Of a DNA stretch of 64,000 nucleotides, positions 11,938-44,051 are shown one piece after another (within the stretch, counting starts at the first letter, position 1; every line of letters starts with the position of its first letter). Position numbers and translations under genes: made by a program. Origin of the DNA: Betaproteobacteria bacterium (GTDB taxonomy: Bacteria > Pseudomonadota > Gammaproteobacteria > Burkholderiales > SG8-41); NCBI GenBank assembly GCA_032123035.1, contig JAQBFV010000189.1:243-64242 (forward strand), read 5' to 3'. The notes under the pieces are model-generated. The model did no database searches. It was not told the origin of the DNA and saw nothing but the letters and a program-made list of their open reading frames with translations.

Positions 11938-12055
11938 AATGCGCAATGCTGAATGATAAATGGATCCGTACCTGCCGCGCCCGGTGTGCGGGCGTTGACC
12001 GCTTTTCGCTAAGCACTAAACATTGAACATTAAACATTGAACATTAAACATTGGT
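11938..12055. repeat. inverted heptad arrays AATGNNN x4 (11938-11965) and CATTRAA-type x6 (12014-12055)
   Basis: The AATG/CATT tetranucleotide recurs at an exact 7-nt period. The holC TAA stop (12044) lies inside the right array. The left array ends 11 nt before ATG 11927. Confidence 0.8.
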
Positions 12056-12472
12056 CTTGCTCAGGTCGTGCGTGCGGATCTCGTAGCCGCGGTCGCGGTA
12101 GAAGCGAAAGCGCTCGCGGGCCTGTGCGCGATCGGCCTCGTCGAGGCCGACGATCTCGACCAGCCGCTGGAAGCGGCTGAAAAACGCAGGCCACTCCGGA
12201 CGCAAGTTGAGCAGCACATGGTCATTGAGCAGATTCTCGCCCTGGTAGTCGACGATGACGGGCGTCACCGTCGCGAGTGGGTCGTCGGGCGCGCAGTGGG
12301 GAACGAATCCGATGGCCGGTGTCGTCCAAAGCATCCGGTCGAGGCGCTGTGCGGTCCCGGCATCGGCACAGAAGACCGTGACCTTGAGGCCGAGGGCGAA
12401 GGCTTTTGAGGACAGCACGCACGCCGTGCGCAACCTGTCGGGAACGTGGGTGTAGAAATCGATTTGTGTCAT
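12044..12472 (-). CDS. holC: DNA polymerase III chi subunit
   Basis: MTQIDFYTH...LWT...FVPH motifs, and the conserved position between pepA and valS. Confidence 0.85.
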   Translation of the reverse strand: MTQIDFYTHVPDRLRTACVLSSKAFALGLKVTVFCADAGTAQRLDRMLWTTPAIGFVPHCAPDDPLATVTPVIVDYQGENLLNDHVLLNLRPEWPAFFSRFQRLVEIVGLDEADRAQARERFRFYRDRGYEIRTHDLSKTNV

Positions 12473-12537
12473 TTATCGTGAATCGTAATTCGTTAAGTGC
12501 CGCTGCGGGACCAGGATTCACCATTCACGATTTACGA
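12469..12537. repeat. inverted heptad arrays TCRTNNN x4 (12469-12496) and TTYACSA x3 (12517-12537)
   Basis: TCGT/ACGA recur at a 7-nt period. The pepA TGA (12525) is inside the right array and the holC ATG (12472) is inside the left array. Confidence 0.75.
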
Positions 12538-14027
12538 CCGCCGCGCGCGCGGTTGATGAGAAACTGTGAGAGCAGCGGCACCGGCCGGCCCGTGCCGCCC
12601 TTTTCCTTGCCGCTTTTCCAGGCCGTGCCCGCGATGTCGAGGTGCGCCCACTTGTAGCTCTTGGTGAAGCGCGCCAGGAAGCAGGCCGCCGTTATGGCGC
12701 CCGCCGGGCGCCCACCGATGTTCGCGAAATCGGCGAAATTGCTCGAAAGCTGCTCCTGGTAGTCTTCCCATAGGGGCAGGCGCCAGGCACGGTCGTGCGC
12801 GGCCACGCCGGCTCCGAGCACTTCGCTTGCGAGGGTGTCATCGTTGGCGAACAAGCCGGTTGCGACGTGGCCCAGCGCGACCACGCAAGCGCCGGTGAGT
12901 GTCGCGATATCGATCACCGCCGCCGGTTTGAAGCGCTCGACGTAGGTGAGCGCATCGCACAGAATGAGGCGGCCCTCGGCGTCGGTGTTCAGGATTTCGA
13001 CGGTCTGCCCGGACAGGCTCTTCACGATGTCACCGGGCCTGGTGGCGCGTCCCCCAGGCATGTTCTCGGTGGTCGGAATGACCCCCACGACGTTCACCGG
13101 CAGGCGCATTTCCCCGACCACCTTCATCGTTCCCAGGACGCTTGCCGCGCCGCACATGTCGAATTTCATCTGGTCCATGTCGGCAGAGGGCTTGATAGAA
13201 ATCCCCCCCGTGTCGAAGGTGGTGCCCTTGCCGACGAGCGCCACCGGCCGCGCCGTCTTGGGTCCGCCGCGGTGTTCGAGCGTGATGAACTTGGGCGGTT
13301 GCGCACTCCCGCGTGCCACGGACAGCAATGCGCCCATGCCGAGCCGCTCCATGTCGGCGCGCTCCAGTACCTCGACCTTCATGCGGTAGCGCTTCGCCAA
13401 CTCTCGCGCCTGGTCCGCGAGGTACGCTGGCGTGCATACGTTGGGCGGCAGGTTGCCCAAGTCCCGCGCCAGCGCGACGCCATGCGCTACCGCAAGACCG
13501 TGCTCGAGCCCTGCGGCGGCGCGCCGCTCAGCCGTACGATCGTTGACGCTCAATACGAGCCGGCGCAAGGCGAAGTCATTGTCCTCGCGCTTGCTTTTCA
13601 TGCGGGTGAAGCGATAGGTGCATTCGCACGCAACCATGACGGCATGCGCGACCTTCCACGCAGCATCGCGTTTGCCGAGCGCAAGCTCCGTGAGATGCAA
13701 CGAGGCTTCCTCGGCCCCGGACGCGCCCAAGGCGCGGATGGCGGCCGCCACGGCGCTGCGGTACTGCTCCTCGCTGAACTGCGCTTCGCGCCCCAGTCCG
13801 ACCAACAGCACGCGATCAGCCGCGGCGCCAGGAACCTTGTGCAGGAACAGGGTCTTGCCGAGCTTACCCTGCATGTCGCCGCGCCGCAGGACGGCGCTGA
13901 GATATCCTTTCGCAGCGCGGTCGAGCACCGCACCGGCGCGGGAAAGCTTGCGCGGCTCGAACACACCCACCACCAGACAACCGTTGCGGGCGGACTGCAG
14001 CACGCCGCTTTTTATGCTAAATTCCAC
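12525..14027 (-). CDS. pepA: leucyl aminopeptidase
   Basis: NTDAEGRLILCDALTY and GKGTTFDTGGISIKP are M17 peptidase signatures. Confidence 0.95.
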   Translation of the reverse strand: MEFSIKSGVLQSARNGCLVVGVFEPRKLSRAGAVLDRAAKGYLSAVLRRGDMQGKLGKTLFLHKVPGAAADRVLLVGLGREAQFSEEQYRSAVAAAIRALGASGAEEASLHLTELALGKRDAAWKVAHAVMVACECTYRFTRMKSKREDNDFALRRLVLSVNDRTAERRAAAGLEHGLAVAHGVALARDLGNLPPNVCTPAYLADQARELAKRYRMKVEVLERADMERLGMGALLSVARGSAQPPKFITLEHRGGPKTARPVALVGKGTTFDTGGISIKPSADMDQMKFDMCGAASVLGTMKVVGEMRLPVNVVGVIPTTENMPGGRATRPGDIVKSLSGQTVEILNTDAEGRLILCDALTYVERFKPAAVIDIATLTGACVVALGHVATGLFANDDTLASEVLGAGVAAHDRAWRLPLWEDYQEQLSSNFADFANIGGRPAGAITAACFLARFTKSYKWAHLDIAGTAWKSGKEKGGTGRPVPLLSQFLINRARGGRKS

Positions 14028-14105
14028 TGAGGGCTCCGTATTGAGTTAGCTGTCTGATTATTTGCGCATTCCTGCCGAAAAGTCAAAGCTGAGCCCGACC
14101 CTTTA

Positions 14106-15182
14106 ATGATCTTCCGCAACGCGCTTCTCCGCGAGCTGGTGATTTCCTCGCTGGGAGTTTTCTTCGTCCTGGTTGGCATCATAGTGACAACGGCGCTTGT
14201 GCGGTTTCTCGGACTGGCTGCGGCCGGTGCCATCACTGCCGGTGGCGTGGCGGCGTTGCTCGGTTTGGCGCTGGTGGGCTATCTGCCGCTCGTGCTTTCG
14301 CTCACGCTCTTCGTCGCGGTGCTGATGACACTCTCGCGCGTCTACCACGATTCGGAGATGGTCGTCTGGTTTGCAAGCGGCATGAGCCTGACCGAATGGA
14401 TCCGGCCCGTGCTCATGTTCACGGTACCAGTCGTCGTCCTGATTGCGCTGGCTTCTCTGCTACTGAGGCCGTGGGCGGTCGCCAACAGCGAGGAGCTGCG
14501 CCGGCGCATGGACAGCCGGGATGATGTATCGGTGATAACGCCCGGCGTCTTCCGGGAATCCAATCGGGCCGACCGCGTGTTTTTCGTTGAGGCGGTGTCG
14601 GGCGCCGAGAAACTCGTCGGCAACGTGTTCGTGAGCTCGGTCCAGCATAATCGGCAGGGCGTGATGGTGGCCGCGCAGGGGTATGCGGAGACCGCGCCGA
14701 ATGGCGATCGCTTCCTCGTGCTGAAGAACGGCCGGCGCTACGAGGGCGTGCCCGGCAAGGCCGTGTACAAGATCTACGAGTTCGAGCGTTATGCCATGCG
14801 CATCGCGTTGAGTGAGGCGCGCCGCGCACCCACCGAAAAGAGCGTGCCAACGGTAGAGCTGGTGCGTAATTTGACTCGCCGCAATCAGGGCGAGTTGTCA
14901 TTCCGGCTGGGCATTCCCATTGGAGCGCTGGTCCTGGCGTTGCTCGCAATCCCCCTGTCCTTCGTCAATCCGCGCGCCGGGCGGTCGATGAATCTGCTTC
15001 TCGCGCTGCTGGTGTACATGAGCTACAGCAACATGCTGTCGATCGCGCAAGCATCCATCGCGCAGTCACGCATCAGTTTTGCGGCCGGGGTGCTCGGCGT
15101 GCACGCTCTGATGTTCCTGCTGCTCCTGCTGCTGTTCTACCGCCGTCTGATGCTGTTCTCGATTTTTCGCTTGATACGATGA
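14106..15182 (+). CDS. lptF: LPS export ABC transporter permease LptF
   Basis: MIFRNALLRELV N-terminus, six-TM permease architecture, divergent from pepA, and a 4-nt overlap with lptG. Confidence 0.88.
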   Translation: MIFRNALLRELVISSLGVFFVLVGIIVTTALVRFLGLAAAGAITAGGVAALLGLALVGYLPLVLSLTLFVAVLMTLSRVYHDSEMVVWFASGMSLTEWIRPVLMFTVPVVVLIALASLLLRPWAVANSEELRRRMDSRDDVSVITPGVFRESNRADRVFFVEAVSGAEKLVGNVFVSSVQHNRQGVMVAAQGYAETAPNGDRFLVLKNGRRYEGVPGKAVYKIYEFERYAMRIALSEARRAPTEKSVPTVELVRNLTRRNQGELSFRLGIPIGALVLALLAIPLSFVNPRAGRSMNLLLALLVYMSYSNMLSIAQASIAQSRISFAAGVLGVHALMFLLLLLLFYRRLMLFSIFRLIR

Positions 15183-16252
15183 GGACGCTGCGGCGATACA
15201 TTGCGACCGAAATCTTCGTCGCGACCGCTCTGTTCACGGCCGCGCTGGTGATGCTGTTCGCGTTCTTCGACATGGTGGAGGAGGTAAAGGACCTCGGCCG
15301 CGGCACCTACACGATGCGACTGATCGCGGGTTACGTCTTGCTTTCGGCGCCGGGGCACATCTACGAACTCTTTCCGATCGCGGTCCTGATCGGCGCGCTT
15401 TTCGCGCTCGCGCAACTCGTTGCGGGATCCGAGTATACGGTCATGCGCACCGCCGGCGTATCAACCGCGCGTTTCGTTACCACGCTCGTGGGAATCGGCC
15501 TCGTTCTTGCCATGCTCACGTTCGCTTTCGGGGAATTCGTCGGCCCGCCCGCGGAGCAGTTCGCGCAGCGCCTTCGCTCGCAGGCCATTACCGGCGTGGT
15601 GGCGCAGGAGTTTCGCTCGGGCCTGTGGATCAAAGACGGCCGTAGTTTCATCAACGTGGTCGAAGTGCTTCCCGACACCAGTCTGCGTGGCGTGCGGATC
15701 TACGATTTCGACGAGCAATATCGGCTGCGCTCCATCAGTTTCGCACAACGGGGAACTTATCAAAGCGGCCGGCGCTGGATGCTCCACGACGTTGCGCGCA
15801 CGAACTTCGATGGCAAGGAAACCTCGGTGCAGAAACTGGCGCAGGCGAGCTGGCAGTCGGTTCTCGATCCCGATCTCATCAGCGTGCTCCTGGTGAAGCC
15901 TGAAAAGATGTCGGCTTCGAGCCTCTATTCGTACACGCAGCACCTCAAGGAAAACCGGCAGCGGGCGCTGCGTTATGAAATCGCGCTTTGGAACAAGCTG
16001 ACCTATCCCCTGGCCGTTGTGGTGATGGTCGTGCTCGCGCTGCCTTTTGCGTATTTTCGTGGCCGCCAGGCGGGCGTCGGCGCCAAAATCTTCGCCGGCA
16101 TCATGCTCGGCCTGGTGTTCCACTTCCTGAATCGCCTGTTCTCGTACCTTGGTCTGATCAACGATTGGCCAGCCTTTGCCAGCGCCATCGTGCCCATCGT
16201 GATTTTTTTCTCGGCGGCGGTGGGGATGATCTGGTGGCAGGAGCGAAGATAA
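15179..16252 (+). CDS. lptG: LPS export ABC transporter permease LptG
   Basis: MRTLRRYIATEIF N-terminus and a YjgP/YjgQ-type permease fold. It is translationally coupled to lptF. Confidence 0.88.
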   Translation: MRTLRRYIATEIFVATALFTAALVMLFAFFDMVEEVKDLGRGTYTMRLIAGYVLLSAPGHIYELFPIAVLIGALFALAQLVAGSEYTVMRTAGVSTARFVTTLVGIGLVLAMLTFAFGEFVGPPAEQFAQRLRSQAITGVVAQEFRSGLWIKDGRSFINVVEVLPDTSLRGVRIYDFDEQYRLRSISFAQRGTYQSGRRWMLHDVARTNFDGKETSVQKLAQASWQSVLDPDLISVLLVKPEKMSASSLYSYTQHLKENRQRALRYEIALWNKLTYPLAVVVMVVLALPFAYFRGRQAGVGAKIFAGIMLGLVFHFLNRLFSYLGLINDWPAFASAIVPIVIFFSAAVGMIWWQERR

Positions 16253-16352
16253 GGCGGAAGGCGGAAGGCGGAAGGCGAGGGGGACCCTACTTAAGAGGTT
16301 TTTCCTTCATCCTTCATCCTTCATCCTTCATCCTTCATCCTTCATCCTTGAT
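16251..16352. repeat. inverted heptad arrays AAGGCGG x4 (16251-16278) and CCTTCAT x6 plus CCTTGAT (16304-16352)
   Basis: Perfect tandem 7-mers. The lptG TAA abuts the first array. The TGA of the RDD gene (16335), and its last codons KDEG, are encoded by the second array. Confidence 0.9.
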
Positions 16353-16769
16353 GACTCGGGTGCCGGCGATCCGGTCGTGCAGGAACTGGTGATCCCGGTC
16401 CACGAGGGCCCATGCGAAGCCCGCGCCGAATGCGAGTAATCCAGCAAGAGCGAGGCAATAGCGCTGTACTGCCTGTCGCAGTGTAAGCATGCCGCCGTTG
16501 CGGTCCACCAGCCGAAGGCGCCAGGTTTTCATCGGCAGCGTCTGACCGCCGCGGCGCCATTGGCAGACGAAATACGCGCCCGCGAGGGCCACGAGATAGA
16601 GCTGGAGGAGCGGCCGCGCGACGACGTGTTCCACCGCTTGAGTCAAGGCGACGAATGGCGCTGCACCGAGCGCGAGGACTGCACACAGAACCAACGCTTC
16701 GTAGGCGAGGCTTACCAGGCGCCGCATGAGGCCTGCTGGCGGCGCGCTGTCATCATGCGCGGCAGACAT
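16335..16769 (-). CDS. RDD-family membrane protein
   Basis: Three TM segments and a C-terminal ...LVDRDHQFLHDRIAGTRVI tail typical of RDD proteins. It is the last gene of the ECF/DUF3619/DUF3106 block. Confidence 0.7.
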   Translation of the reverse strand: MSAAHDDSAPPAGLMRRLVSLAYEALVLCAVLALGAAPFVALTQAVEHVVARPLLQLYLVALAGAYFVCQWRRGGQTLPMKTWRLRLVDRNGGMLTLRQAVQRYCLALAGLLAFGAGFAWALVDRDHQFLHDRIAGTRVIKDEG

Positions 16770-16821
16770 TGGCTACGCGCTAGCGGCCTGTCGGACTTGA
16801 AGTTCCGATAGGCCGCTAAAT

Positions 16822-16954
16822 GCAAAACCGCCCGCAGAATTGCAACAGAGTGGAGTAACAACACGTGTTTTCGCTTTTAAGAAGAAGCGCAGGAGCAGGG
16901 CGGAAGTCAGGTAATTGGAATTCAAAGCCGCTGTTTGCCTGCGGGCGGTTTTGC
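16822..16954. repeat. second copy of the inverted-repeat-bounded element (16-bp perfect IR GCAAAACCGCCCGCAG / CTGCGGGCGGTTTTGC)
   Basis: Read directly. The left end AATGCAAAACCG...TTGCAACA matches the copy at 368-486. Confidence 0.5.
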
Positions 16955-16957
16955 GTA

Positions 16958-16991
16958 AGGAGGGTGTTGGGACATCGTCCGACACCCTCCT
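16958..16991. other. 10-bp perfect stem hairpin (AGGAGGGTGT ... ACACCCTCCT) just downstream of the DUF3106 stop
   Basis: Read directly. An inner GGAC/GTCC pairing extends the stem. There is no U-tract. Confidence 0.55.
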
Positions 16992-17000
16992 AGCGCGGGG

Positions 17001-17477
17001 TTAACGCGTCGTGGGCGCCGGCACGGCGGGCGCCATCAATGGTGCGGGCGGGGCTGGTGGATCCGACGGCGAAAGATCCGGCTGGGCCGCCACGGCCCGC
17101 TGATACGCCCGCCACTGTCGGGTGACCTGTCGGCGCTCTTTGGGCGGAAGACGCTTGAGCTGTTGGTAGCGCTCGCGCGCGGCGCGGCGCTGTTCGGGGG
17201 TCAGCTTCGCCCAGTCGACCATGCGCTTTTTCAGGCGCTCGCGCGCTGGCGGCTTCATCTTGGGATAACGCTTTGCGATGGCCACCCAATTCTTGCGGTG
17301 CTTCGCGTCGAGCTGGTCCCACTCGCGGGAGAGCGGGGCGAGAATCTTCTGCTGTTCGGGCGTGAGCTCGGACCACGCGGGTCGTGTGTTCCTGCCACTC
17401 TCGGATGGATTCTGCGCGGCGACGACCGGAAATGCGAGACAGAGCCAGGCGATCAACGCGACGCACGTTTTAGCCAT
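17001..17477 (-). CDS. DUF3106-type periplasmic protein
   Basis: Signal peptide. Repeated W..L.PEQ(Q/R) helical units (WSELTPEQQKIL, WAKLTPEQRRAARERYQQ) and a Pro-rich tail. Confidence 0.7.
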   Translation of the reverse strand: MAKTCVALIAWLCLAFPVVAAQNPSESGRNTRPAWSELTPEQQKILAPLSREWDQLDAKHRKNWVAIAKRYPKMKPPARERLKKRMVDWAKLTPEQRRAARERYQQLKRLPPKERRQVTRQWRAYQRAVAAQPDLSPSDPPAPPAPLMAPAVPAPTTR

Positions 17478-17842
17478 GAATCGAAGCCCTTGTCGAGATA
17501 AGCATTGATCGGCAGCTCATCGGTGAGCAAGCCGGCGTCGATGTCGGCCAGCTCGTGGGTCGGGCCGAAGCTGTTCCAGATGGCAAGACCGGTCAGGCCG
17601 AGCACAAGCGTAGTGACGGCCACCAGATTGCGAACACTATAGAAGCGATGCCCGGAAACCCGCGCGATCGCAGGTCCGGCCCACGCCAGGCCCGGGACAG
17701 GTGCGGGTTGCTCGCGATAGCGCCCAAGGGCCCGCTTGCGCGCAGCGAGCAGTCGCTCCCGCGTCGCCGGATCGAGTTGATCCACGCCGGCGTCGAGGTG
17801 CTCGACAATGCGGCGCGCCAACTCGTTCTCGGGCTGGTTCAT
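17453..17842 (-). CDS. DUF3619-type membrane protein (probable partner or anti-sigma of the adjacent ECF sigma)
   Basis: Starts at MNQPENELARRIVEHLD (Met43 of the listed ORF), overlapping the sigma gene stop in ATGA. It has a single central TM. Confidence 0.65.
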   Translation of the reverse strand: MNQPENELARRIVEHLDAGVDQLDPATRERLLAARKRALGRYREQPAPVPGLAWAGPAIARVSGHRFYSVRNLVAVTTLVLGLTGLAIWNSFGPTHELADIDAGLLTDELPINAYLDKGFDSWLKRASR

Positions 17843-18495
17843 GGCTTGATCCCCTGTTTCCCGAGCATCACGGAAAGGGCACGAGTTGCCCTTGAGCAGT
17901 GTGTTTTCACACTTCCCACGGAGCAACCCATTATTTTCGCCGCCTCGGCGACGTCCAGTTCCTCCCAATAACGCAACAAGAAGGCCTGGCGTTGACGCGC
18001 CGGCAGTTGTTCCAGAGCTTTTTCAATGAAAGCAATAACTTGTGAGCGTTCAGCCTGTTCGGCGGGGGGTTCCGAAAACTTGGAGTCGTCCGCGACTTCC
18101 AAAGTTTCGAGCGGGTCTGCGTCCTCGTCGCTCCCGCTGCCGAGAAGGCTCGAGATTGGGAGCGTCCACATCGAGCGTACCTTTTGGCGGCGATAAAAAT
18201 CGAGGATGGTGTTTTGCAAAATGCGCTGAAACAGGGGCGGGAGCTCGGCCAGCGGACGCGCGGAGTATTTTTCGGTGAGCTTCAGCATCGCGTCCTGGAC
18301 GATGTCCAATGCCAAGTGATCGTCACGCACCGCGAACAGCGCATGCTTGTAGGCGCGGCGCTCGACCTTGGCGAGAAACTCCGCAAGTTCTTGGTAGGTG
18401 GCCAGTCGTCCCGCCTTCCGGATGCCCGCGGCGACGCGCGCCCCGTCGGAGCGATCCCCTCGCACCGTCCCGCGCAGGTCGGCGCATCTTAGCAA
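17839..18495 (-). CDS. ECF-type RNA polymerase sigma factor
   Basis: Region 2 (DIVQDAMLKL, ILQNTILDFYRRQ) and region 4 (LPARQRQAFLLRYWEELDVAEAAKIMGCSVGSVKTHCSRA). The start is uncertain (TTG at 18495). Confidence 0.8.
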   Translation of the reverse strand: MLRCADLRGTVRGDRSDGARVAAGIRKAGRLATYQELAEFLAKVERRAYKHALFAVRDDHLALDIVQDAMLKLTEKYSARPLAELPPLFQRILQNTILDFYRRQKVRSMWTLPISSLLGSGSDEDADPLETLEVADDSKFSEPPAEQAERSQVIAFIEKALEQLPARQRQAFLLRYWEELDVAEAAKIMGCSVGSVKTHCSRATRALSVMLGKQGIKP

Positions 18496-18633
18496 AAAAC
18501 AAAGGCGCGCAACGCCTGGGTTAAACCGCCGGGGGGCTTTGCTCTATCTTACTGTTTAAAGGGATGTTTTACTTGACCAATGTGCGGCCAGACGGTAACG
18601 TTACCGGTTTCCGCGTTTGGGCTGGGATGGGCC

Positions 18634-20327
18634 ATGGAACTGACTGGCGCTGAGATCGTCGTGCGCTGCCTCCAGGAGGAGGGGGTCGAGCACGTGTTCG
18701 GCTATCCCGGAGGCGCCGTGCTCTTCCTCTATGACGAGATCTTCAAGCAGGACAAGTTCAAGCACATCCTGGTGCGGCACGAGCAGGGCGCGATTCACGC
18801 GGCCGACGGCTATGCGCGGTCAACGGATAAGGTAGGGGTTGCACTGGTGACGTCCGGGCCGGGCGTAACAAACGCCGTCACGGGCATTGCCACCGCCCAC
18901 ATGGATTCCATTCCCCTGGTCATCATCACGGGCCAGGTGCCGACGCATGCGATCGGCCAGGACGCGTTCCAGGAGTGCGACGCGATCGGAATCACGCGGC
19001 CGTGCGTGAAGCATAACTTCCTGGTGAAGGACGTGAAGGATCTCGCGGTTACCATGAAGAAGGCTTTCTATATTGCGGCCACGGGCCGCCCGGGCCCGGT
19101 CGTGGTGGACATCCCGAAGGACGTGACGACGGCAAAGAGCGAGTTTCGCTATCCCGAGACGATTGCGATGCGCTCGTACAACCCGGTCACCAAAGGCCAC
19201 GCCGGGCAGATCAAGAAGGCGGTACAGCTCCTCGCAAAGGCCAAGCGCCCGATGATCTACGCCGGCGGGGGTGTGATCCTGGGCGGCGCGTCCGATGAGC
19301 TCACGCAACTCGTGCGCTCGCTCGGCTTTCCCTGCACGAACACCCTGATGGGGCTTGGCGCCTATCCGGCGACGGATCGTCAGTTTCTCGGAATGCTCGG
19401 CATGCACGGCACTTACGAAGCGAACATGGCGATGCAGCATTGCGACGTACTGCTCGCGATCGGGGCGCGCTTCGACGACCGCGTGATCGGCAACCCGCGC
19501 CACTTCTTCTCCGAGGAGCGCACCATTATCCACATCGATATCGATCCCTCCTCGATATCGAAGCGCGTCAAGGTCGACGTTCCTGTCGTCGGCGACGTGC
19601 GGGAGGTGCTGCGCGAGCTCATGAAACAACTGGAGGCCGCCAAGGAAAAGCCCGATCCGGAAGCGCTCAAGACGTGGTGGACGCAGATCGAGCTGTGGCG
19701 CTCACGCGACTGCCTCAAGTACGACCGCTCGAGCTCGCTCATCAAGCCGCAATACGTGATCGAGAAGCTCTACGAAGTCACCGGCGGCGATGCTTTCGTG
19801 ACCTCCGACGTGGGCCAGCACCAGATGTGGGCGGCGCAGTTCTACAAGTTCCAGAAACCGCGCCGCTGGATCAACTCGGGCGGGCTGGGCACGATGGGCT
19901 TCGGCCTGCCGGCGGCGATGGGCGTGCAGCTCGCGCACCCGGGCGCGACCGTCGCGTGCGTCACGGGCGAGGCCTCGATTCAGATGTGCATCCAGGAGCT
20001 CTCCACCTGCAAGCAATACCGGCTGCCGATCAAGGTGGTGAACCTCAACAACAAGTACATGGGCATGGTGCGCCAGTGGCAGGAGTTCTTTCACGGCAAC
20101 CGCTACGCGGAGTCGTACATGGACGCGCTGCCCGACTTCAGCAAGTTAGCGGAGTCGTATGGCCACATCGGCGTCAAGATCGAGAAGCCCGAGGACGTAG
20201 AGCCCGCGCTCAAGGAAGCGTTCGCGCGCAAGAGCGACCTCGTGTTCATGGATTTCGTGACGGACCAGACCGAGAACGTGTTCCCGATGATACCGGGCGG
20301 CAAGGGACTTTCGGAGATGATCCTGGT

Positions 20328-20331
<4 letters not shown>
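18634..20331 (+). CDS. ilvI: acetolactate synthase large subunit
   Basis: [31 protein letters not shown]-terminus and a ThDP motif region [14 protein letters not shown]. The 18 codons upstream of 18634 look non-coding. Confidence 0.93.
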
Positions 20332-21928
<1,597 letters not shown>

Positions 21929-21945
21929 TCAACGCTGTGCGGTGA

Positions 21946-22680
21946 GTGGGGAAAGGACGGGAAGATACGGTGAATATCGAGCAACAACGAGCTGACATAG
22001 CCACGCCGGAGGCCGCTGGCCAGAAGCCGCACCGCGCGAACGGCTACCCTCATCCCATCATTGCGCGTGAGGGCTGGCCCTTCATTGCGCTTTCCGTCAT
22101 CGTGGCCGTGCTGGTCCACGCGGCTGCGGGCCTGTGGTGGGCAGCGCCGCTGTGGCTCGTGGTCGTTTTGGTCCTTCAGTTCTTTCGCGACCCTCCACGC
22201 GCTGTTCCGCTCGAACCGAAGGCGGTCCTGTCACCGGCGGACGGGCGCATCGTCACGGTCGAACGCGCTCGCGACCCGTATCTCGAGCGCGACGCCCTGA
22301 AGATGAGCGTCTTCATGAACGTGTTCAACGCGCACTCCAACCGCAGCCCGGTGGACGGCGAGGTTCGCGAGGCGTGGTACCACACGGGTAAGTTCTTCAA
22401 CGCCGCGTTGTCCAAATCGTCGTTCGAGAACGAGCGTGCCGCGCTCTGGATCCGCACGCCGGGCGGTGCGGACGTGACGTGCGTGCAGATCGCGGGGCTG
22501 ATCGCGCGGCGCATCCTCTGCTATGCCCGGCCCGGCCAGCGCCTTGCGCGCGGCGAGCGCTACGGGTTCATCCGCTTCGGTTCCCGGGTCGATGTCTACC
22601 TGCCGTCGGGCGCGCGTCCGGTCGCGGCCGTTGGCGACAAGGTCTATGCCACCGAAAGCATTCTTGCGATATTTCCGTGA
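21946..22680 (+). CDS. psd: phosphatidylserine decarboxylase (short form)
   Basis: [13 protein letters not shown], and [14 protein letters not shown] containing the self-cleaving GS site. The start is GTG at 21946, or GTG at 21970. Confidence 0.85.
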
Positions 22681-22762
22681 ACGGTGAACAGTGAACGGTG
22701 AACAGAAACCGGGACGCCCACTGCCGATGACCCACCGTTTACCGTTTACCGGTTACCGTTGA
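22677..22762. repeat. inverted heptad arrays GTGAACR x4 (22677-22704) and CCGTTTA/CCGGTTA/CCGTTGA x4 (22735-22762)
   Basis: In the + RNA, 23 of 27 positions pair, including three G-U pairs. The psd TGA is in the first unit. The pssA GTG (22769) follows the last unit by 6 nt. Confidence 0.85.
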
Positions 22763-22768
22763 CCGCCC

Positions 22769-23593
22769 GTGTACGAACCCCGCGAGAACAAGCTCTTCAT
22801 CAAGTCGCGTTTTGCGCGGCGCGGCATCTACTGGTTGCCGAACGTCTTCACGACAATCGCGTTGTTTGCAGGGTTCTACGCCATCGTGCAGGCGATGGGC
22901 GGGCGCTTCGAGCATGCGTCGATCGCGATTTTCGTTGCGCTGGTATTCGACGGACTCGATGGACGGGTGGCTCGGCTGACGCGCACGCAGAGCGCGTTCG
23001 GGGCCGAGTACGACAGTCTCTCCGACATGGTGTCTTTCGGGGTCGCGCCGGCGCTCGTGGTCTATGTCTGGGCGCTCAAGGATTTTGCGCTGATGAAGAA
23101 CATCCCGCTGTTGGGGCCGTGGCTTACCAGCAAGCTGGGCTGGATCGCCGCGTTCATCTACTGCGTGTGTGCAGCCCTGCGGCTCGCACGCTTCAACACG
23201 ACGCTCGAGATTGCCGACAAGCGGTTCTTCCAGGGCCTGCCGAGTCCAGCCGCCGCGTGTCTCGTGGCCGGTCTCGTGTGGGCGCTGAACGAATACCAGA
23301 TCGAGGGCCGCGACGTGAAATGGCTGGCGTGGGCGCTTACGGTTTTCGCGGGCCTCACCATGGTGAGCAATCTCAAGTTCTACAGCGGCAAAGACATCAA
23401 TCTCCGCAAGAGCGTGCCGTTCTCCATGCTAGTGGGGATTACCCTGGGCATTGTGGCGCTCTTCATGTTCTCGAGCACGCTGCCCGAACTGCTGTTCCTG
23501 CTGTTCTTGAGTTACGGTTTCTCGGGTTATGTGCTCTGGGCGTATGGACAGGTCAAAAAGCGGGCCGCCGACCGGGCGCCGCCGCCGCAATGA
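22769..23593 (+). CDS. pssA: CDP-diacylglycerol--serine O-phosphatidyltransferase
   Basis: DGLDGRVARL...SDMVSFG is the CDP-alcohol phosphatidyltransferase motif. The GTG start is the first possible start after an in-frame TGA, and there is no obvious SD. Confidence 0.88.
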   Translation: MYEPRENKLFIKSRFARRGIYWLPNVFTTIALFAGFYAIVQAMGGRFEHASIAIFVALVFDGLDGRVARLTRTQSAFGAEYDSLSDMVSFGVAPALVVYVWALKDFALMKNIPLLGPWLTSKLGWIAAFIYCVCAALRLARFNTTLEIADKRFFQGLPSPAAACLVAGLVWALNEYQIEGRDVKWLAWALTVFAGLTMVSNLKFYSGKDINLRKSVPFSMLVGITLGIVALFMFSSTLPELLFLLFLSYGFSGYVLWAYGQVKKRAADRAPPPQ

Positions 23594-23632
23594 AGTTGCG
23601 TGTTGTCCTGAAAGCCGTTATATTTCAGGAAC

Positions 23633-23719
23633 ATGAACGCAATGACGCAGGCCAACTCGCCCCTCGACCTTGCCAGTCTCCTGCTGGCACGCCTGCTGCT
23701 GCGCCTTCGCGGCGCATAA
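23633..23719 (+). CDS. candidate leucine-rich leader peptide for leuA attenuation (28 aa)
   Basis: MNAMTQANSPLDLASLLLARLLLRLRGA has 9 Leu in 28 codons, including LLL twice. It lies 120 nt upstream of leuA, with GC-rich pairing segments following. The SD is weak. Confidence 0.45.
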   Translation: MNAMTQANSPLDLASLLLARLLLRLRGA

Positions 23720-23839
23720 ATCCTTTATTCTCTTTCCAGTAGTAGATTAAAGCGCGGGCGCACTACGGCGCGCGGCGCGGTTTACAAACATTTGCATCGT
23801 GGCTGCGGCCGCGGTGGGCGGTAAGAATTGGAGACGGTC

Positions 23840-25381: not shown

Positions 25382-25383
25382 TT

Positions 25384-25397
25384 GAGTGACGAGTGAC
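25384..25397 (+). repeat. two tandem heptads GAGTGAC GAGTGAC between leuA and the DUF2905 gene
   Basis: Read directly. Same GTGA-type unit family as the larger arrays. Confidence 0.6.
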
Positions 25398-25398
25398 G

Positions 25399-25599
25399 AT
25401 GGCGAAGTGGCTGATTACAGCCGGGATCGTGCTCGTTGCGCTGGGTCTGTTGTGGCCCCTGCTCTCAAAGCTGGGCCTCGGCAGCCTGCCCGGCGACATC
25501 AGGGTCGAACGCAAGGGGTTCACGTTCTATTTTCCGATCACCACCGGCATTTTGGTCTCGCTGGGCATCACGCTCATTCTCTGGATTTTCCGTCGCTAA
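25399..25599 (+). CDS. DUF2905-type small membrane protein
   Basis: MAKWLITAGIVLVALGLLWP...LPGDIRVERKGFTFYFPITT...; two TM segments, 66 aa. Confidence 0.7.
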   Translation: MAKWLITAGIVLVALGLLWPLLSKLGLGSLPGDIRVERKGFTFYFPITTGILVSLGITLILWIFRR

Positions 25600-25602
25600 G
25601 GT

Positions 25603-25937
25603 TCATTTTCCATACCGCCGGACATAGGCGATCGCCGCACAGAAGAAGGTGAATGCGAATGCGACCTCGGCGAGCGCGAGTTGGGCTGCGATGCCGCGTT
25701 CGCTCCATGCGCGCACGACGCCCTCCGCAAAGTAGACGAGGATGAGGAGCATCGACCAGCGGTAGGTGTAGGGCCTGCCGTGCAGGACTCCACGCAGCGG
25801 CACGAGCAGGGGCAGCGTCTTAAGGATCAGCCACGAGCCGCCGGGCCGCAACGGCGCGAGCCACAGCTCCCAGGCAAGGCAAAGTACCGTGAGGGCAACG
25901 AGGCTCCCGCAGGCGGTGAGATAGGCGGCGCGCAGGC

Positions 25938-25941
<4 letters not shown>
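25603..25941 (-). CDS. DUF2069-type membrane protein
   Basis: Four TM segments with WELWLAP...LKTLPLL...RPYTYRW. It sits in the usual position downstream of a WrbA-type gene cluster. Confidence 0.65.
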
Positions 25942-27274
<1,333 letters not shown>

Positions 27275-38226: not shown

Positions 38227-39360
<1,134 letters not shown>

Positions 39361-39400
39361 TTAGCGGCTCGCGTTCTCTTGACGTCCTGTTCGTTCAAAC

Positions 39401-39429: not shown

Positions 39430-39450
39430 TTTGCGCTGAATTCGCTCGGC

Positions 39451-39708: not shown

Positions 39709-39720
39709 GCCGCTTTCTCC

Positions 39721-41222: not shown

Positions 41223-41233
41223 TGTAGTGATCG

Positions 41234-41266
41234 GGGGCACGGTAGCGCGTGCCCCTCGTCTTTTCT
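41234..41266 (+). terminator. intrinsic terminator after ispB
   Basis: GGGGCAC / GTGCCCC stem followed by TCGTCTTTTCT. Confidence 0.65.
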
Positions 41267-41272
41267 GCGAGT

Positions 41273-41349
<77 letters not shown>

Positions 41350-41452
41350 ATTCTCGCGCTGCTTTGGAGGGTCTACCAGCTCCGTTGCCGTTGGTCCGCA
41401 CGCACGCTATCAGTTCCGGGCGCGTCGCCTTTCTGCGCATGAGATCGGACGC

Positions 41453-41920
41453 ATGCCCAAATATTGCCAGAATCTGCTCAATGCGCCGCCCGTTGCCGAG
41501 GGTTGGCTCAAGCTGTTCACGGCGCTGCGCCAGCAGGCTACGCTGCGCGGGGACTATCGCGAGCTTGCCATCTTGCGCCTTGCGATCATCAACGGGGCCG
41601 AGTACGAATATCGCGCGCACATCCCGTTCGCGCAGTGCGAGCGCGTGACTGAAACGCAGATCGACGCGCTCAAGGACTGGAGCGCATCGAACGCTTTCAC
41701 GGACGCACAACGCGCGGCGCTGGCGTACACTGACGCCATGACGCGCGAAGTCCACGTTTTCGATGGCGTGTCCGATGCGCTCCGACTCCATTTCAATCAG
41801 CGCGAGCGGGTCGAGCTCAGCGCAACGATTGCCGGTTACAACTTCGTCTCCCGCTTCCTAGAGGTGCTCGGGGTCGATCCCGAGGCCGCGCACGCCCAAA
41901 CCCGCCAGCGCCCCGCCTGA
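41453..41920 (+). CDS. carboxymuconolactone decarboxylase (AhpD-like) family protein
   Basis: RELAILRLAIINGAEYEYRAHIPFA and LSATIAGYNFVSRF. The start is ATG 41453, and the upstream part of the listed ORF overlaps the tRNA. Confidence 0.7.
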   Translation: MPKYCQNLLNAPPVAEGWLKLFTALRQQATLRGDYRELAILRLAIINGAEYEYRAHIPFAQCERVTETQIDALKDWSASNAFTDAQRAALAYTDAMTREVHVFDGVSDALRLHFNQRERVELSATIAGYNFVSRFLEVLGVDPEAAHAQTRQRPA

Positions 41921-42003
41921 TCGCTCCCCCGCGCAACTTTCGACCTCGACGCTTGAGCGCCATTGCGGCACACTAGGCCGTCGCACGTTGCGTGAGGTTT
42001 TGA

Positions 42004-42225
42004 TTGGCGAAAATCATTCTGGTGGTTCTCGGCCTGCTGCTTGCCTACTGGCTTCTGAGGGGTTACCGGCGGCACATCGAACGCGGTAATGCGCCCTCTG
42101 CGGGGACGACCGAGGACATGGTCCGCTGCGAACTCTGTGGTGTGCATCTGCCGCGCAGCGAGAGCGTGGTTGCGCGAGGCAAGCATTACTGCTCGGTCGA
42201 GCACCGCGAGCAACAGCCCGGATGA
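42004..42225 (+). CDS. PP0621-type small membrane protein with a C-terminal Cys/His zinc-ribbon-like motif
   Basis: One TM (AKIILVVLGLLLAYWLL), then CELCGVHLPRSESV...HYCSVEH. TTG start. Its stop overlaps the kinase gene start. Confidence 0.6.
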   Translation: MAKIILVVLGLLLAYWLLRGYRRHIERGNAPSAGTTEDMVRCELCGVHLPRSESVVARGKHYCSVEHREQQPG

Positions 42226-43847
42226 TGTCAATGAGCCGAGCCCGTATGGAGCAGGCGGAGCGCCGGGCGCCGGGGGCGGCAAGCAGCACCGGCGCACACC
42301 CAGCGCCGTACTGGCGCTCACTCTTCCTGTTCAACGTCTACCGCCTGGTCGTTGGGCTGCTGCTATTACTCGGGGTCGGGCTATGGGGCGAGAACATCAT
42401 GTTCGGCTCACAGGACCGCACGCTCTTCCTGTTTGCCGACATCGCCTACATCGTGTTCAGCGTCGCGTGCTTCGTGACGATCGAGACGCGCCGGCACTTC
42501 AACCTGCAGCTCATGACGCAGGTGGTCGCCGACATCGTGTTCATCGCGCTTCTGATCGCCGCCAGCGGCGGAATTTCGAGCGGGCTGGGCCTGCTGCTGC
42601 TGACCACACTGGCCGGCGCAGGGCTTATCAGCCGGGGCCAGCTGACGCTGTTCTTCGCCGCGCTCGCCGGCATCGCAGTGTTGCTCGAACAAACGTACCA
42701 GGTGCTGGCCTACGACGCTCCGGTGGGGCAGTACGCGCAGGCCGGTCTTCTGTCCGCGGCCTATTTCGCCATCGCATGGCTTGCCCACGCGCTTGCCAAG
42801 CACACGCTGGCGAGCGAGGAGCTGGCGGCACGTCGCGAGGTCGACCTCGCGAATATGGAGCAGGTGAACGCGCTCGTCATCCGCGACATGCAGGACGGGG
42901 TGTTGGTAGTCGACGGGCGCGGCGTCATCCGGCAATCCAACACGCGCGCGGAGCAGCTGCTGGGACCGATCCGCCGCGATGCCGGGGAAGTGACGCTCGC
43001 CGGGTACGCCCCGGCACTGGGCGCTCGATTTGAACAATGGCGCAGCCAAAAGGGTGCGGACACGGCGGGTGTCAGGCCTTTCAGCAGCGCGGTCGGCGCG
43101 CGTTTCGTGCCGATCGGCAGGAGCCGCCAGATCGGAGCCGTCATCTTTCTCGAGGACCAGAGCCGGATCCAGTCGCAGGCACGCCAGTTGAAGCTCGCAG
43201 CGATGGGGCGGCTCACCGCCAACATCGCGCACGAGATTCGTAACCCCCTTGGGGCCATCAGCCACGCCGCCGAACTCCTGCGCGAGGAGCCGACGATCGA
43301 TGCGACCACCCAGCGCCTGATCACGATCATCAACGAGAACACGCGGCGCCTGGACGGCATGGTGAACAACGTGCTGCGGCTGAGCCGCGGCGACCAGGCG
43401 CATCGCGAGCGCTTCAAGGTAGTGAATTTTCTCAAGACGTTCGTCGGGGAGTTCACGCAGATTGAGCGCATTGACCCCGAGATATTCTGGCTCGAGCTCA
43501 CCGGAGACGCTGAGGTGCTGTTTGATCGCAGCCATCTGAACCAGGTCATGTGGAATCTGTGCCGCAACGCGTTGCGGCACAGCCGGCGGGAGCCGGAGAG
43601 CATCCGCATCCTCGTCGGCACGACGCACTCCGACACTGTTGTAAAATTGGACGTGGTCGATGATGGACCGAGCATCACTCCCGAAGTGCGTGCCCGTCTG
43701 TTCGAGCCTTTCTTTACGACCGCGGCCGCCGGAACCGGCCTCGGTCTGTATATTGCGCGAGAAGTGTGCGAGGCGAATGGCGCGACCCTGGACCACGTGG
43801 AGACGCCCTCGGGCACGCAGTTCAGTGTACTTTGTCGTGTGGCCTGA
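42222..43847 (+). CDS. PilS-like sensor histidine kinase (polytopic N-terminus, PAS-like linker, HisKA, HATPase)
   Basis: About six TM segments. H-box is AHEIRNPLGAI. The N-box region is NLCRNALRHS and the G-boxes are DDGPSI / GTGLGLYIARE. Confidence 0.85.
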   Translation: MMSMSRARMEQAERRAPGAASSTGAHPAPYWRSLFLFNVYRLVVGLLLLLGVGLWGENIMFGSQDRTLFLFADIAYIVFSVACFVTIETRRHFNLQLMTQVVADIVFIALLIAASGGISSGLGLLLLTTLAGAGLISRGQLTLFFAALAGIAVLLEQTYQVLAYDAPVGQYAQAGLLSAAYFAIAWLAHALAKHTLASEELAARREVDLANMEQVNALVIRDMQDGVLVVDGRGVIRQSNTRAEQLLGPIRRDAGEVTLAGYAPALGARFEQWRSQKGADTAGVRPFSSAVGARFVPIGRSRQIGAVIFLEDQSRIQSQARQLKLAAMGRLTANIAHEIRNPLGAISHAAELLREEPTIDATTQRLITIINENTRRLDGMVNNVLRLSRGDQAHRERFKVVNFLKTFVGEFTQIERIDPEIFWLELTGDAEVLFDRSHLNQVMWNLCRNALRHSRREPESIRILVGTTHSDTVVKLDVVDDGPSITPEVRARLFEPFFTTAAAGTGLGLYIAREVCEANGATLDHVETPSGTQFSVLCRVA

Positions 43848-43853
43848 CAAACC

Positions 43854-44051
43854 GGTGAATGGTGAATGGTGAATGGTGAATGGTGAATGGTGAATGGTGA
43901 ATGGTGAATGGAGAATGGTGAATGGTGAATGGAGAATGGTGAATGGTGAATGGTGAATGGTGCGTCGAAACAGCAGGGCTGCTTGAGAATGTCTTCGCGA
44001 GTTATGGGGTGCGAACCACCACTCACCACTCACGAATCACGACTCACGGCT
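43854..44051. repeat. largest heptad locus: 15 tandem units GGTGAAT (two are GGAGAAT) at 43854-43958 plus a degenerate 16th, a spacer of about 50 nt, then 5 inverted units CACCACT CACCACT CACGAAT CACGACT CACGGCT at 44017-44051
   Basis: Counted unit by unit. The pilS-like TGA lies 7 nt before the first unit, and the pilR-like ATG lies 8 nt after the last. Confidence 0.95.

Follow-up and report, generated by a model that had tools for sequence, protein, structure and literature searches.

Several gene junctions in the window, i.e. the whole stretch of 64,000 nucleotides of betaproteobacterial DNA analysed here, carry tandem arrays of 7-nt units, most of them arranged as two inverted arms, which we read, with a probability of roughly 60%, as heptanucleotide microsatellite hairpins: stem-loops of a betaproteobacterial lineage that have grown by slippage directly after stop codons. 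Each would have started as a small GC-rich stem-loop directly behind the stop codon; replication slippage would then have duplicated local sequence on both of its sides in units of 7 nt, often a stop codon and four more bases, giving a 5' array that is G-rich, C-poor and usually stop-bearing and a 3' array that is its imperfect complement. The arrays are real, variable between strains and polar; a special translation device, as suggested in the first-pass annotation of this DNA, is unsupported by the tests run.

Eight merged period-7 runs were found in the window, whereas 100 order-1 Markov simulations of it gave 0.58 on average and 3 at most, and a self-match scan returned 10 runs (388 nt) at period 7 and 0-1 at periods 4, 5, 6, 8, 10 and 11. 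Tandem Repeats Finder and the self-match scan place the period-7 arrays at 12017-12053, 12515-12537, 16251-16277, 16303-16349, 22677-22705, 22734-22765, 25384-25399, 43854-43962 and 44017-44048. All eight merged runs lie inside or overlap the non-coding part, which makes up ~13% of the window, and all are at gene junctions. HMM matches back the names valS, holC, pepA, lptG, ilvC, psd, pssA and sigma54-type response regulator, as well as the PilS-like 6TM kinase, the RDD-family gene and DUF2905, and the stop and start codons named in the first-pass annotation were all correct when checked. Its description of spacers built from 7-nt units, most of them as two inverted arrays, holds at holC-valS (J1), pepA-holC (J2), lptG/RDD-family gene (J3), psd-pssA (J5) and PilS-like kinase/response regulator (J7), and is marginal at ilvH-ilvC (J4); at leuA-DUF2905 (J6) an array is present, but with 2.3 units only and no partner.

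The J1 and J2 arrays are read on the minus strand. At J1, the 5' arm of ~5.6 (C/T)AATGTT units (12017..12055, from period-7 detection) includes the holC stop TAA (12044-12046) and the final two holC codons, and the 3' arm of four CATTNNN units (11938..11965, from sequence and fold) stops 10 nt short of the valS ATG (11925-11927), with a GC-rich apical mini-hairpin (~11975-11995) between them. At J2, the 5' arm TCGTAAA TCGTGAA TGGTGAA (12513..12539, period-7 detection and fold) includes the pepA stop TGA (12525-12527) and the final three pepA codons, its unit coming from the conserved pepA end cgtaaatcgTGA, while the 3' arm CGAATTA CGATTCA CGATAA (12473..12496, sequence and fold) adjoins the holC ATG (12470-12472) without a gap. 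Between the J2 arms sits a conserved central mini-hairpin, CCCGCAGCGG, which a relative without arrays has kept too. The remaining features lie on the plus strand. At J5, the psd stop TGA (22678-22680) is within the first unit of the 5' arm (GTGAACG/GTGAACA x4, 22677..22705, period-7 detection), and the 3' arm (ACCGTTT x4.6, 22734..22765, period-7 detection and fold) ends 3 nt before the pssA GTG (22769) and shows no variation in 10 other assemblies. The single J6 array (GAGTGAC x2.3, 25384..25399, period-7 detection) occupies the spacer from the leuA stop (25379-25381) to the DUF2905 ATG (25399) and has no inverted partner; loci L002 and L003 have 3-4.4 units at this junction. The J7 5' arm, GGTGAAT x15.6 (43854..43962, period-7 detection), contains zero C and begins 6 nt past the stop of the PilS-like kinase (43845-43847); the 3' arm CACCACT CACCACT CACGAAT CACGACT CACGGCT (44017..44051, period-7 detection and fold) comes to within 7 nt of the sigma54-dependent response-regulator ATG (44059). 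All six short-read contigs with an identical regulator end inside the J7 5' array.

The genes at J3 are convergent. The G-rich arm (AAGGCGG x4, 16251..16279, plus strand, period-7 detection) begins within the lptG stop TAA (16250-16252), and the C-rich arm (TCCTTCA x6.7, 16299..16352, plus strand, period-7 detection), which on the minus strand reads ATGAAGG, supplies the RDD-family gene with its final codons and its TGA stop (16335-16337). The claim that array pairs bracket a stop and the next start therefore stands at J1, J2, J5 and J7 and fails at J3, where two stops are bracketed. The J4 spacer (20820..20892, plus strand; from sequence, fold and orthologues) has a weak 5' arm of three AGAGGNN units and a 3' arm of the CTCTCG type flanking a GGCGG/CCGC apical hairpin, and was neither detected by Tandem Repeats Finder nor unusually stable (folding z-score +0.3). 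Orthologues of the ilvH-ilvC junction, on the other hand, have strong inverted heptamer arms, e.g. GTGAAAT/TTCACCT and GTGAGGG/CCTCAC, and it is in these orthologous spacers that the proposed compensatory change between arms is borne out: 89% of cells are paired and 9/14 pairs have changed on both sides, a level matched by 0/500 shuffles, with slid controls dropping to 48-65% paired, the structure having been taken from the same alignment of related sequences.

The two arms were also expected to form long imperfect hairpins, and RNAfold indeed pairs them at J1, J2, J3, J5 and J7, with modest z-scores of -0.8 to -2.8 against dinucleotide shuffles. The skew reported earlier, G>C in the 5' arm and C>G in the 3' arm, was correct on recount, and it extends beyond the window: among 44 inverted pairs classified, including pairs from an unrelated metagenome sample, 42 are G-first and 0 C-first, and GGTGAAT arrays have an inverted partner downstream in 25/66 cases and upstream in 1/72. 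The 5' arms close on average 2.13 reading frames on the sense strand versus 0.50 on the antisense strand, although closure of all three frames, as had been claimed, applies to 3/6 of the 5' arms in the window and not to the other three. Adjacency to upstream stops far above chance was likewise confirmed, as the 5' arms adjoin or include the upstream stop in 25/30 cases in orthologous spacers, and 29/42 ORF-adjacent GGTGAAT arrays in metagenomes abut or include it. No canonical terminator (stem and U-tract) was found at any array, and an Rfam search of the arrays returned no match. Sense-strand G.U pairs are not in excess over antisense ones in ~95 orthologous spacers, so that nothing here proves selection on RNA rather than DNA.

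Transcripts of such junctions would be expected to fold into a long imperfect stem-loop, which may act like ordinary post-stop or intercistronic stem-loops in 3'-end formation or protection, in segmental mRNA stability within operons, or in keeping untranslated RNA folded; stem-loops mark transcript 3' ends under any termination mechanism (PMC13613805). The G-first polarity could come from filters that act where ORFs end and begin: incoming ribosomes would meet stops in all frames, the first-transcribed arm would be C-poor and hence a poor Rho loading site, and no purine-rich SD-like or start-like repeats would lie ahead of the next start. The Rho part of this argument is weak, as an arm of ~28 nt offers Rho little length to load on.

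The role proposed earlier, in which the hairpin joins the upstream stop to the downstream start, or masks the start until a ribosome arriving from the upstream gene opens the stem at its base, and thereby couples translation or re-initiation, appears decidedly unlikely as a general one. It is best illustrated at J2, where in the minimum-free-energy fold the holC AUG is paired with the last codons of pepA, whose stop lies within the 5' arm, and where the start region is the sixth most occluded of 59 in the window, the only occluded one among the array junctions; furthermore, the J1, J2, J5 and J7 arrays begin at the stop and finish 3-10 nt from the start, and the holC, valS and pssA starts are without SD in most relatives, their ancestral junctions being overlapping or very short and thus classically coupled. 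Against this, J3 and 8/15 metagenomic inverted pairs are located between convergent genes, and the ilvC Shine-Dalgarno GAGGAA (20901-20906) lies outside the J4 stem, as it does in all orthologues, the ilvC start (rank 54/59) being among the most accessible in the window. The valS, pssA, DUF2905 and response-regulator starts have median predicted accessibility, and at J7 the 15-unit arm pairs via its distal units, leaving the kinase stop ~75 nt from the stem base, so that stop and start are not brought together. Lack of an SD is not distinctive, an SD motif being present at only ~33% of window gene starts and absent from 67% in the crude gene map used for this survey. Where a start adjoins the 3' arm, as in holC, its translation may come to depend on ribosomes finishing the upstream gene, and we regard this dependence as a side effect and not as the purpose of the hairpin.

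The period-7 excess is specific to the lineage: per 100 kb, the closest relatives have ~12 arrays, Sulfuricella-type loci 7.6 and loci further off 1.3. Arrays recur at matching junctions but are built of other units, i.e. the position is conserved and the unit is turned over; after lptG, for instance, loci at 55-93% LptG identity have AAGGCGG, GAAACTT x15, TAGCTGT x18, TAGCGGT or GGATGAG. Copy number varies between strains in 7-nt steps, although the assemblies compared encode the same flanking proteins: the J1 5' arm is 7 or 14 nt shorter in other assemblies with identical HolC, and the J3 C-rich arm has 7 versus 3 units, the 3-unit allele occurring in two other samples. The arrays thus behave as microsatellites. 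Their units are of local origin, often a stop codon plus four bases; locus L003 has the pepA end given above and the psd end ccgTGAACG without arrays there. Heptamer-rich contigs contain 105 different other units, which indicates that the array-forming process is independent of unit sequence. Many orthologous junctions are array-free, with 5-25 nt spacers or overlapping stop and start (-4 to 25 nt overall), so the arrays are dispensable; with such tight ancestral spacers, the bracketing of stop and start is almost automatic, as anything growing there must touch both genes.

Much of this would also be expected if the arrays were neutral slippage debris, functionless products of a lineage bias to 7-nt duplications that survive wherever selection allows, i.e. 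in non-coding spacers. Relatives manage without arrays, copy number varies between strains in one arm only, a strand-specific G.U signal is absent, the units are diverse, and arm lengths are in places very unequal (15.6 versus 5 units; 3 versus 14.4), which speaks against the stem being under tight selection. Such debris is nevertheless a rather doubtful account of the whole, since independent slippage does not explain a complementary array across the spacer, nor does it explain the arm covariation across deep orthologues, the absence of C-first pairs, or the non-periodic hairpins found at the same position in heptamer-less lineages (L010, L036-L040), including the ilvH-ilvC and lptG-RDD junctions.

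Strict 7-nt phasing might instead point to a DNA- or RNA-binding protein that recognises units spaced 7 nt apart, such as a ribbon-helix-helix or RNA-binding regulator; omega of pSM19035, a ribbon-helix-helix protein, binds WATCACW heptads. The typical arm has ~four units, similar ideas have been put forward for the arrays of Geobacter and Beggiatoaceae, and units of different window junctions share a TGAA-like core, (G)TGA(A/G) in many of them, with cross-junction arm complementarity of 4.55/7 versus 3.45/7 for random heptamers. We consider this very improbable, as the units are very heterogeneous within one genome (CAATGTT, AAGGCGG, GTGAACG, GGTGAAT, TAGCTGT, GAAACTT) and number 105 others in the heptamer-rich contigs, they derive from local gene ends, and they are located behind stop codons and not at promoters; the TGA core is common because the units are seeded at stop codons. 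Insertion of non-autonomous mobile elements (REP, BIME or MITE-like) behind genes has an equally slim chance of being the explanation. Extragenic imperfect palindromes after stops do look like REP/BIME, and the distant locus L069 has the same inverted element of 8-nt units at three places, but unit and loop are particular to each window junction, the units prolong the coding sequence beside them, the J2 mini-hairpin persists in the array-free relative, no shared termini or target duplications were seen, and strain differences are single-unit steps within arms.

The REP/BIME of enterobacteria are imperfect palindromes located behind stops, in operons and between convergent genes, where they stabilise upstream mRNA segments; they share a consensus, occur dispersed in many copies as one family, and are moved by RAYT transposases. 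The arrays described here are, unlike these, locus-specific and grown in place, and their hairpins most plausibly work like REP/BIME palindromes. The STRR heptamers of cyanobacteria reportedly comprise several units per genome, tandem and intergenic, likewise here, and are said, unlike here, to be limited to heterocystous strains with unit sequences of their own; they were described by Mazel et al. 1990 (cited in PMC4692102). According to the summary in PMC4679880, Mrazek, Guo and Shah 2007 surveyed long SSRs with units of 5-11 nt, found that, in free-living bacteria rich in SSRs, Betaproteobacteria (Burkholderia) among them, heptanucleotides outnumber every other class, and proposed polymerase slippage as the cause of their excess; that summary describes no inverted pairing, polarity or relation to stop codons. 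The TAACTGA direct repeats of marine Beggiatoaceae, cyanobacteria and Bacteroidetes (MacGregor 2015; PMC4679880) are likewise intergenic heptamers at ORF borders; in forward orientation they give stops in all frames and thus limit gene-end overlap to at most 18 nt, genes downstream of them are often without SD, and a translational role and an RNA-binding regulator have been proposed. They consist, however, of a single unit, nearly always direct (one inverted case), just before start codons and with no predicted fold, whereas the units here are variable and paired into hairpins that begin at stop codons. Aklujkar et al. 2009 (PMC2700814) describe, in Geobacter metallireducens, paired 'global regulator binding sites', each an array of 3-5 units of 7-9 nt in tandem, which also lie on opposite strands at variable distance; unlike the present arrays, they belong to shared-consensus families at dozens of loci, are read as protein-binding sites, and are in some cases associated with insertion sequences.

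The closest system is that of the heptameric G-rich SSRs GGGAATC in Xanthomonas and GGGGAYT in Nostoc (Rehm et al. 2015; PMC4692102), a described architecture of this kind, of which the first-pass annotation knew none. Those repeats are strongly intergenic, mostly with ~four units per array; their G-rich strand coincides with the coding strand at most 50 bp from the stop, in some cases overlapping it, and the complementary strand is found just upstream of the next ORF. Each genome has 70-75 convergent inverted pairs, and related species have arrays of other lengths at the same junctions, with no function assigned to them (PMC4692102). The present arrays resemble those of Xanthomonas in the G-rich array at the stop, the complement before the next start, the convergent pairs and the ~four units per arm. 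They differ in that each junction has its own unit, whereas the Rehm repeats have one dominant unit per genome, read as G-quadruplex-forming; most units here (GGTGAAT, CAATGTT, GTGAACG) are without a G3 tract, and most carry a stop codon, which the Xanthomonas unit does not. The host, an uncultured betaproteobacterium, is of a lineage other than those of the Rehm repeats; similar repeats were already on record from Xanthomonas and cyanobacteria, and the arrays here add one more member to that class.

The arrays in the window represent the heptanucleotide-SSR hairpin class in another lineage; as elements they are not of a new kind. The window, with a G+C content of 63%, carries valS-holC-pepA on the minus strand, lptF-lptG, a convergent RDD-family gene, ilvI-ilvH-ilvC-psd-pssA-leuA-DUF2905 and, further on, the genes of a PilS-like kinase and a sigma54-dependent response regulator; these assignments are backed by HMM matches. 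The closest genomes are those of uncultured Betaproteobacteria, with LptG identities of 93% (JAOTTL01) and 88% (SG8_41). Contigs of GCA_032125385.1 have the window sequence at the junctions examined (holC-valS, pepA-holC and psd-pssA), and an exact look-up of the window IlvH returned no record. In ValS, an N-terminal extension of ~203 residues (window 11319-11927, minus strand) stands ahead of the part recognised by ValS models; this extension, together with its MAE/MAD start, is kept in related loci, without a Pfam family match. Furthermore, an 18/36-nt tandem repeat at 51297-51378 lies within a 99-codon ORF (51160-51459, plus strand) that is absent from the crude gene map and whose product, an extremely basic Lys/Arg/Ala-rich repeat protein (...RRKAVRRKKAAPRKKIARRRKAAQRKKTARRKAAA...), looks histone-H1- or AlgP-like; the minus-strand ORFs that overlap it (50694-51377 and 50953-51624) have no Pfam match.

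Tandem Repeats Finder and a self-match scan both placed the period-7 arrays where the first-pass annotation had put them, with 2.3 to 15.6 head-to-tail 7-nt units each. The self-match scan gave 10 runs at period 7 versus 0-1 at periods 4, 5, 6, 8, 10 and 11, and the merged period-7 runs numbered 8, against 0.58 expected for an order-1 Markov sequence, every run lying within or overlapping the ~13% of the window that is non-coding. The quoted stop and start codons are each correct, as is the reported skew of the arms, G>C in the first and C>G in the second, and RNAfold predicts pairing between the arms at the holC-valS, pepA-holC, lptG/RDD-family, psd-pssA and PilS-like kinase/response regulator spacers. 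The proposed family is genuine and was described correctly, with qualifications: the ilvH-ilvC spacer is weak in the window, and the leuA-DUF2905 spacer has only 2.3 units and is without an inverted partner. Tandem units, an excess of period 7 and whole-unit copy-number change, which define the heptanucleotide SSR class, were all found, and so was the paired-SSR layout, i.e. intergenic position, the G-rich strand on the coding strand at the stop, its complement before the next ORF, and convergent pairs. The arrays also extend into coding ends, where their units make up the final 2-5 codons of the RDD-family gene (KDEG*, 16335-16352, minus strand), holC (NV*, 12044-12055, minus strand) and pepA (RKS*, 12525-12539, minus strand), and calls of gene ends depend on them. 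The first of these cases belongs to a spacer between convergent genes, lptG and the RDD-family gene, in which the C-rich arm, read on the minus strand, supplies the final codons and stop of the latter.

The best-supported account of these arrays is that small stem-loops directly behind stop codons would have been lengthened by slippage. Orthologous spacers were taken from 80 syntenic loci, and comparison with them shows that the array units prolong the sequence of the gene ends beside them: one orthologous locus (L003) has both cgtaaatcgTGA at the end of pepA and ccgTGAACG at the end of psd, without arrays. In the pepA-holC spacer a small apical hairpin, CCCGCAGCGG, is kept between the arms. 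Since the ancestral spacers were tiny, any growth would touch both the stop and the start codon. Variation in copy number, which had been suggested as a check, is seen as whole-unit differences among assemblies with identical flanking proteins: the C-rich arm behind lptG counts 7 units in the window versus 3 in two further samples, and the 5' (first, in gene sense) arm of the holC-valS spacer lacks 7 or 14 nt in three assemblies, while the psd-pssA spacer is invariant across ten. We infer that the 3-unit contig is not a 7-unit allele collapsed in a 31-mer graph, because the reads would then contain no flank-array-flank 31-mers of the 3-unit form. At the kinase/response regulator spacer, six of six independent short-read contigs with an identical response regulator (Logan, L081-L086) stop within the 15-unit GGTGAAT array. 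Long heptamer arrays systematically break short-read assemblies, and in practice they also shift gene-end calls. Units are more alike within an arm than they are complementary to the opposite arm (e.g. AAGGCGG and CCTTCAT are complementary at 5/7), which indicates that, once a seed stem existed, slippage expanded the two arms separately.

Compensatory changes between the arms are seen in the ilvH-ilvC spacer, for which 11 deep orthologues were aligned. The consensus helix has 14 arm-to-arm pairs, with 89% of all cells paired, and two-sided changes occur in 9 of the 14 pairs, a number that 0 of 500 shuffles reached, the helix having been taken from the same alignment and the sequences being related to one another. 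When the partner is slid by 1-3 columns, the pairing drops to 48-65%.

The heptamer trait is a property of a lineage, independent of the unit sequence. The density of period-7 arrays is ~12 per 100 kb in the nine closest loci, 7.6 in loci of Sulfuricella, Sulfurimicrobium or Nitrosomonadales type, and 1.3 in more distant loci. Arrays recur at the same junctions across loci with changing units, which are AAGGCGG, AAGTCAG, GAAACTT (x15), TAGCTGT (x18), TAGCGGT, GGATGAG and GTGAGGG after lptG, and GTGAAAT/TTCACCT, GTGAGGG/CCTCACT and GGCGCGA/CTCGCC after ilvH. In lineages that are not heptamer-prone the ilvH-ilvC junction has ordinary hairpins. Arms with a period of 8 nt, GCGCAAAG / CTTTGCGC, occur in the ilvH-ilvC spacers of four loci (L013, L016, L019 and L025) and in the pepA-holC spacer of another (L009); as these Sulfuricella-type arms stand where relatives have 7-nt ones, the preferred step length differs between lineages. 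Beyond the orthologous loci, a metagenome scan for GGTGAAT arrays matched more than 120 contigs, of which 80, with GC contents of 24-75%, were analysed. Although selected solely for containing a GGTGAAT array, these contigs carry ~20 additional period-7 arrays per 100 kb, built from 105 distinct units. Nested composite hairpins, with outer arms of one heptamer (e.g. GGGGATT / AATCCCC or AAGTGAC / GTCACTC) around inner arms of another (GGTGAAT / ATTCACC), are found in four of the metagenome contigs (L100, L163, L101 and L142), whose GC contents are very different.

Because a G-rich array, a loop and a C-rich array read the same from either strand, the polarity of an inverted pair can be scored without gene orientation. 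The G-rich arm came first in all 3 pairs of the window, in all 5 at lptG loci, in 31 of the 32 pairs of the GGTGAAT metagenome scan and in 3 of the 4 pairs of other units on the same contigs, with 0 C-first pairs in each set. In that scan a GGTGAAT array has its inverted partner on the downstream side in 25 of 66 cases and on the upstream side in 1 of 72; single arrays have a modest bias, 19 on the G side versus 11 on the C side, as judged by noisy ORF-based orientation calls. Of the 30 5' arms from orthologous spacers, 25 overlap the stop codon, and 5' arms close 2.13 reading frames in the sense direction versus 0.50 in the antisense direction, the reverse being true of 3' (second) arms. In the metagenome sample, an open frame 80 codons or more in length closes between -60 and +24 nt from the array start at 42 of 71 arrays, and 29 of these 42 frames close within the array itself; the random-position control gave 16%, an imperfect comparison, since whatever frame enters an array that carries stops in every frame is shut there. 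G-first order also holds for the stop-free units AAGGCGG, AGGATAC and GGGAACA, and the polarity is therefore broader than stop content. Avoidance of Rho may be a reason for it, but at ~28 nt the typical arm is short as a place for Rho to load.

Under the account of slippage-lengthened stem-loops, a putative generic stem-loop role at the RNA level, together with filters at ORF borders, would account for pairing and polarity. A stronger reading, to which we give roughly one chance in five, is that the pairs are a selected, cross-phylum 'ORF-border insulator' of fixed polarity, which closes reading frames, often supplies the gene's stop, marks or protects the transcript 3' end and exposes no C-rich RNA until the stem can form. 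The first arm on either DNA strand would then be G-rich, C-poor and usually provided with stops in three frames, and the same rule would apply from 24% to 75% GC genomes and to many unit sequences. If this were true, selection at the levels of translation and termination would shape a whole class of bacterial microsatellites.

The first-pass annotation had suggested, among other roles, hairpin-mediated translational coupling or re-initiation, in which folding of the arms brings stop and start together. In relatives, holC, valS and pssA generally have no Shine-Dalgarno (SD) sequence, and ancestrally the junctions of these genes overlap or span 5-25 nt; the absence of an SD is, on the other hand, no special trait of the downstream genes, as only about a third of the crude window starts (longest-ORF start calls) have one. 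In partition-function folding holC alone stands out: its AUG is predicted to pair with the final pepA codons, and the occlusion of its start region ranks 6 of 59. In all orthologues, however, the stem does not include the ilvC SD, and the ilvC start is predicted to be highly accessible (rank 54 of 59), whereas the valS, pssA, DUF2905 and response regulator starts have median predicted accessibility. At the kinase/response regulator spacer the modelled stem uses distal units of the long arm, so that stop and start are not juxtaposed. Furthermore, lptG and the RDD-family gene converge on their spacer, and noisy ORF-based calls put about half of the metagenomic pairs between convergent genes too. 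The sense and antisense strands of ~95 orthologous spacers fold equally well with similar numbers of G.U pairs, without a consistent strand asymmetry by which to tell RNA-level from DNA-level selection. Coupling would thus be no more than a local effect at holC, whose AUG is masked in these thermodynamic predictions, and a general role is not supported.

Several other classes of element were considered. Heptamers of the G-quadruplex class have at least four tracts of G3 or longer, one in each unit; GGTGAAT, GTGAACG, TCGTGAA, CAATGTT and AAGGCGG have no GGG, which is found only in some orthologous units (GTGAGGG). REP/BIME elements or MITEs are dispersed multi-copy families with a common consensus or termini, associated with RAYT or another transposase and with target-site duplications. 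In the 64 kb of genome examined, unit and loop are specific to each junction and the units run on from local gene ends, which does not fit a mobile palindrome, and no target-site duplications were seen in the spacers read. A distant Burkholderiales contig (L069) carries one inverted element at 2359-2513, 10921-10996 and 12299-12444, with arms of three tandem 8-nt units (CACGAAGR ... YCTTCGTG) inside common termini CTACCTCTCACC ... GGTGAGAGGTAG; it has the appearance of a REP/MITE-like family, dispersed and with periodic arms. A consensus scan for intrinsic terminators (GC stem plus U-tract) found none at any array in 11000-26000, with a site total equal to the shuffle expectation, and direct reading of the kinase/response regulator spacer (43854-44051) found no T run after the 3' arm. 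Rfam 15 gave no family at the arrays, its sole match in the window being a tRNA gene (41273-41346, plus strand); this gene overlaps an ORF of the GC3-based gene map (41249-41920), a call that is probably wrong. Operators or centromeres for omega-type ribbon-helix-helix proteins are contiguous WATCACW heptads at promoters with a dedicated binding protein. The present units are heterogeneous, their arms are 20-58 nt apart and the arrays lie behind stop codons; a single binding protein is likewise at odds with units that are locus-specific and of local origin.

To our knowledge, an excess of heptanucleotide repeats in many free-living bacteria has been on record since 2007, and its role is still unexplained. 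Heptanucleotide units dominate long SSRs, for which polymerase slippage was suggested, according to the summary of Mrazek et al. (2007) in PMC4679880. TAACTGA arrays at ORF borders have been described, in which stops in all frames limit gene overlap (MacGregor 2015, PMC4679880), and in Geobacter metallireducens arrays with units of 7-9 nt occur in pairs, one on each strand (PMC2700814). It has also been reported that transcript 3' ends are marked by stem-loops regardless of how termination takes place, and that the properties of these stem-loops are clade-specific (PMC13613805). In Xanthomonas, each genome has 183-186 GGGAATC arrays, mostly of four units and ~90% intergenic, with 70-75 convergent inverted pairs; the loci are common to species and vary in length, and no function was found, G-quadruplexes being favoured by the authors (Rehm et al. 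2015, PMC4692102). With these paired arrays the architecture was already on record, although the first-pass annotation knew of no described element that has it; a literature search on GGTGAAT itself matched only primers and eukaryotic repeats. The lineage added here, of uncultured Betaproteobacteria, is related to SG8_41 and the Sulfuricella group, and since each junction has its own unit, the geometry (array from the stop, inverted pairing, G-first order) can be separated from any particular sequence. The window also adds direct evidence that such arrays are seeded locally, vary between strains, have covarying arms and follow a polarity rule without a C-first exception among the pairs scored, and exception-free polarity and array-supplied stops offer simple rules for operon junctions, transcript 3' ends and the evolution of bacterial microsatellites. 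In contrast to Xanthomonas, with its GGGAATC unit and proposed quadruplex, the window has many units within one genome, one for each junction and mostly quadruplex-incapable; the quadruplex idea is for this reason unlikely as a general explanation, and the insulator, if real, would replace it in Xanthomonas as well.
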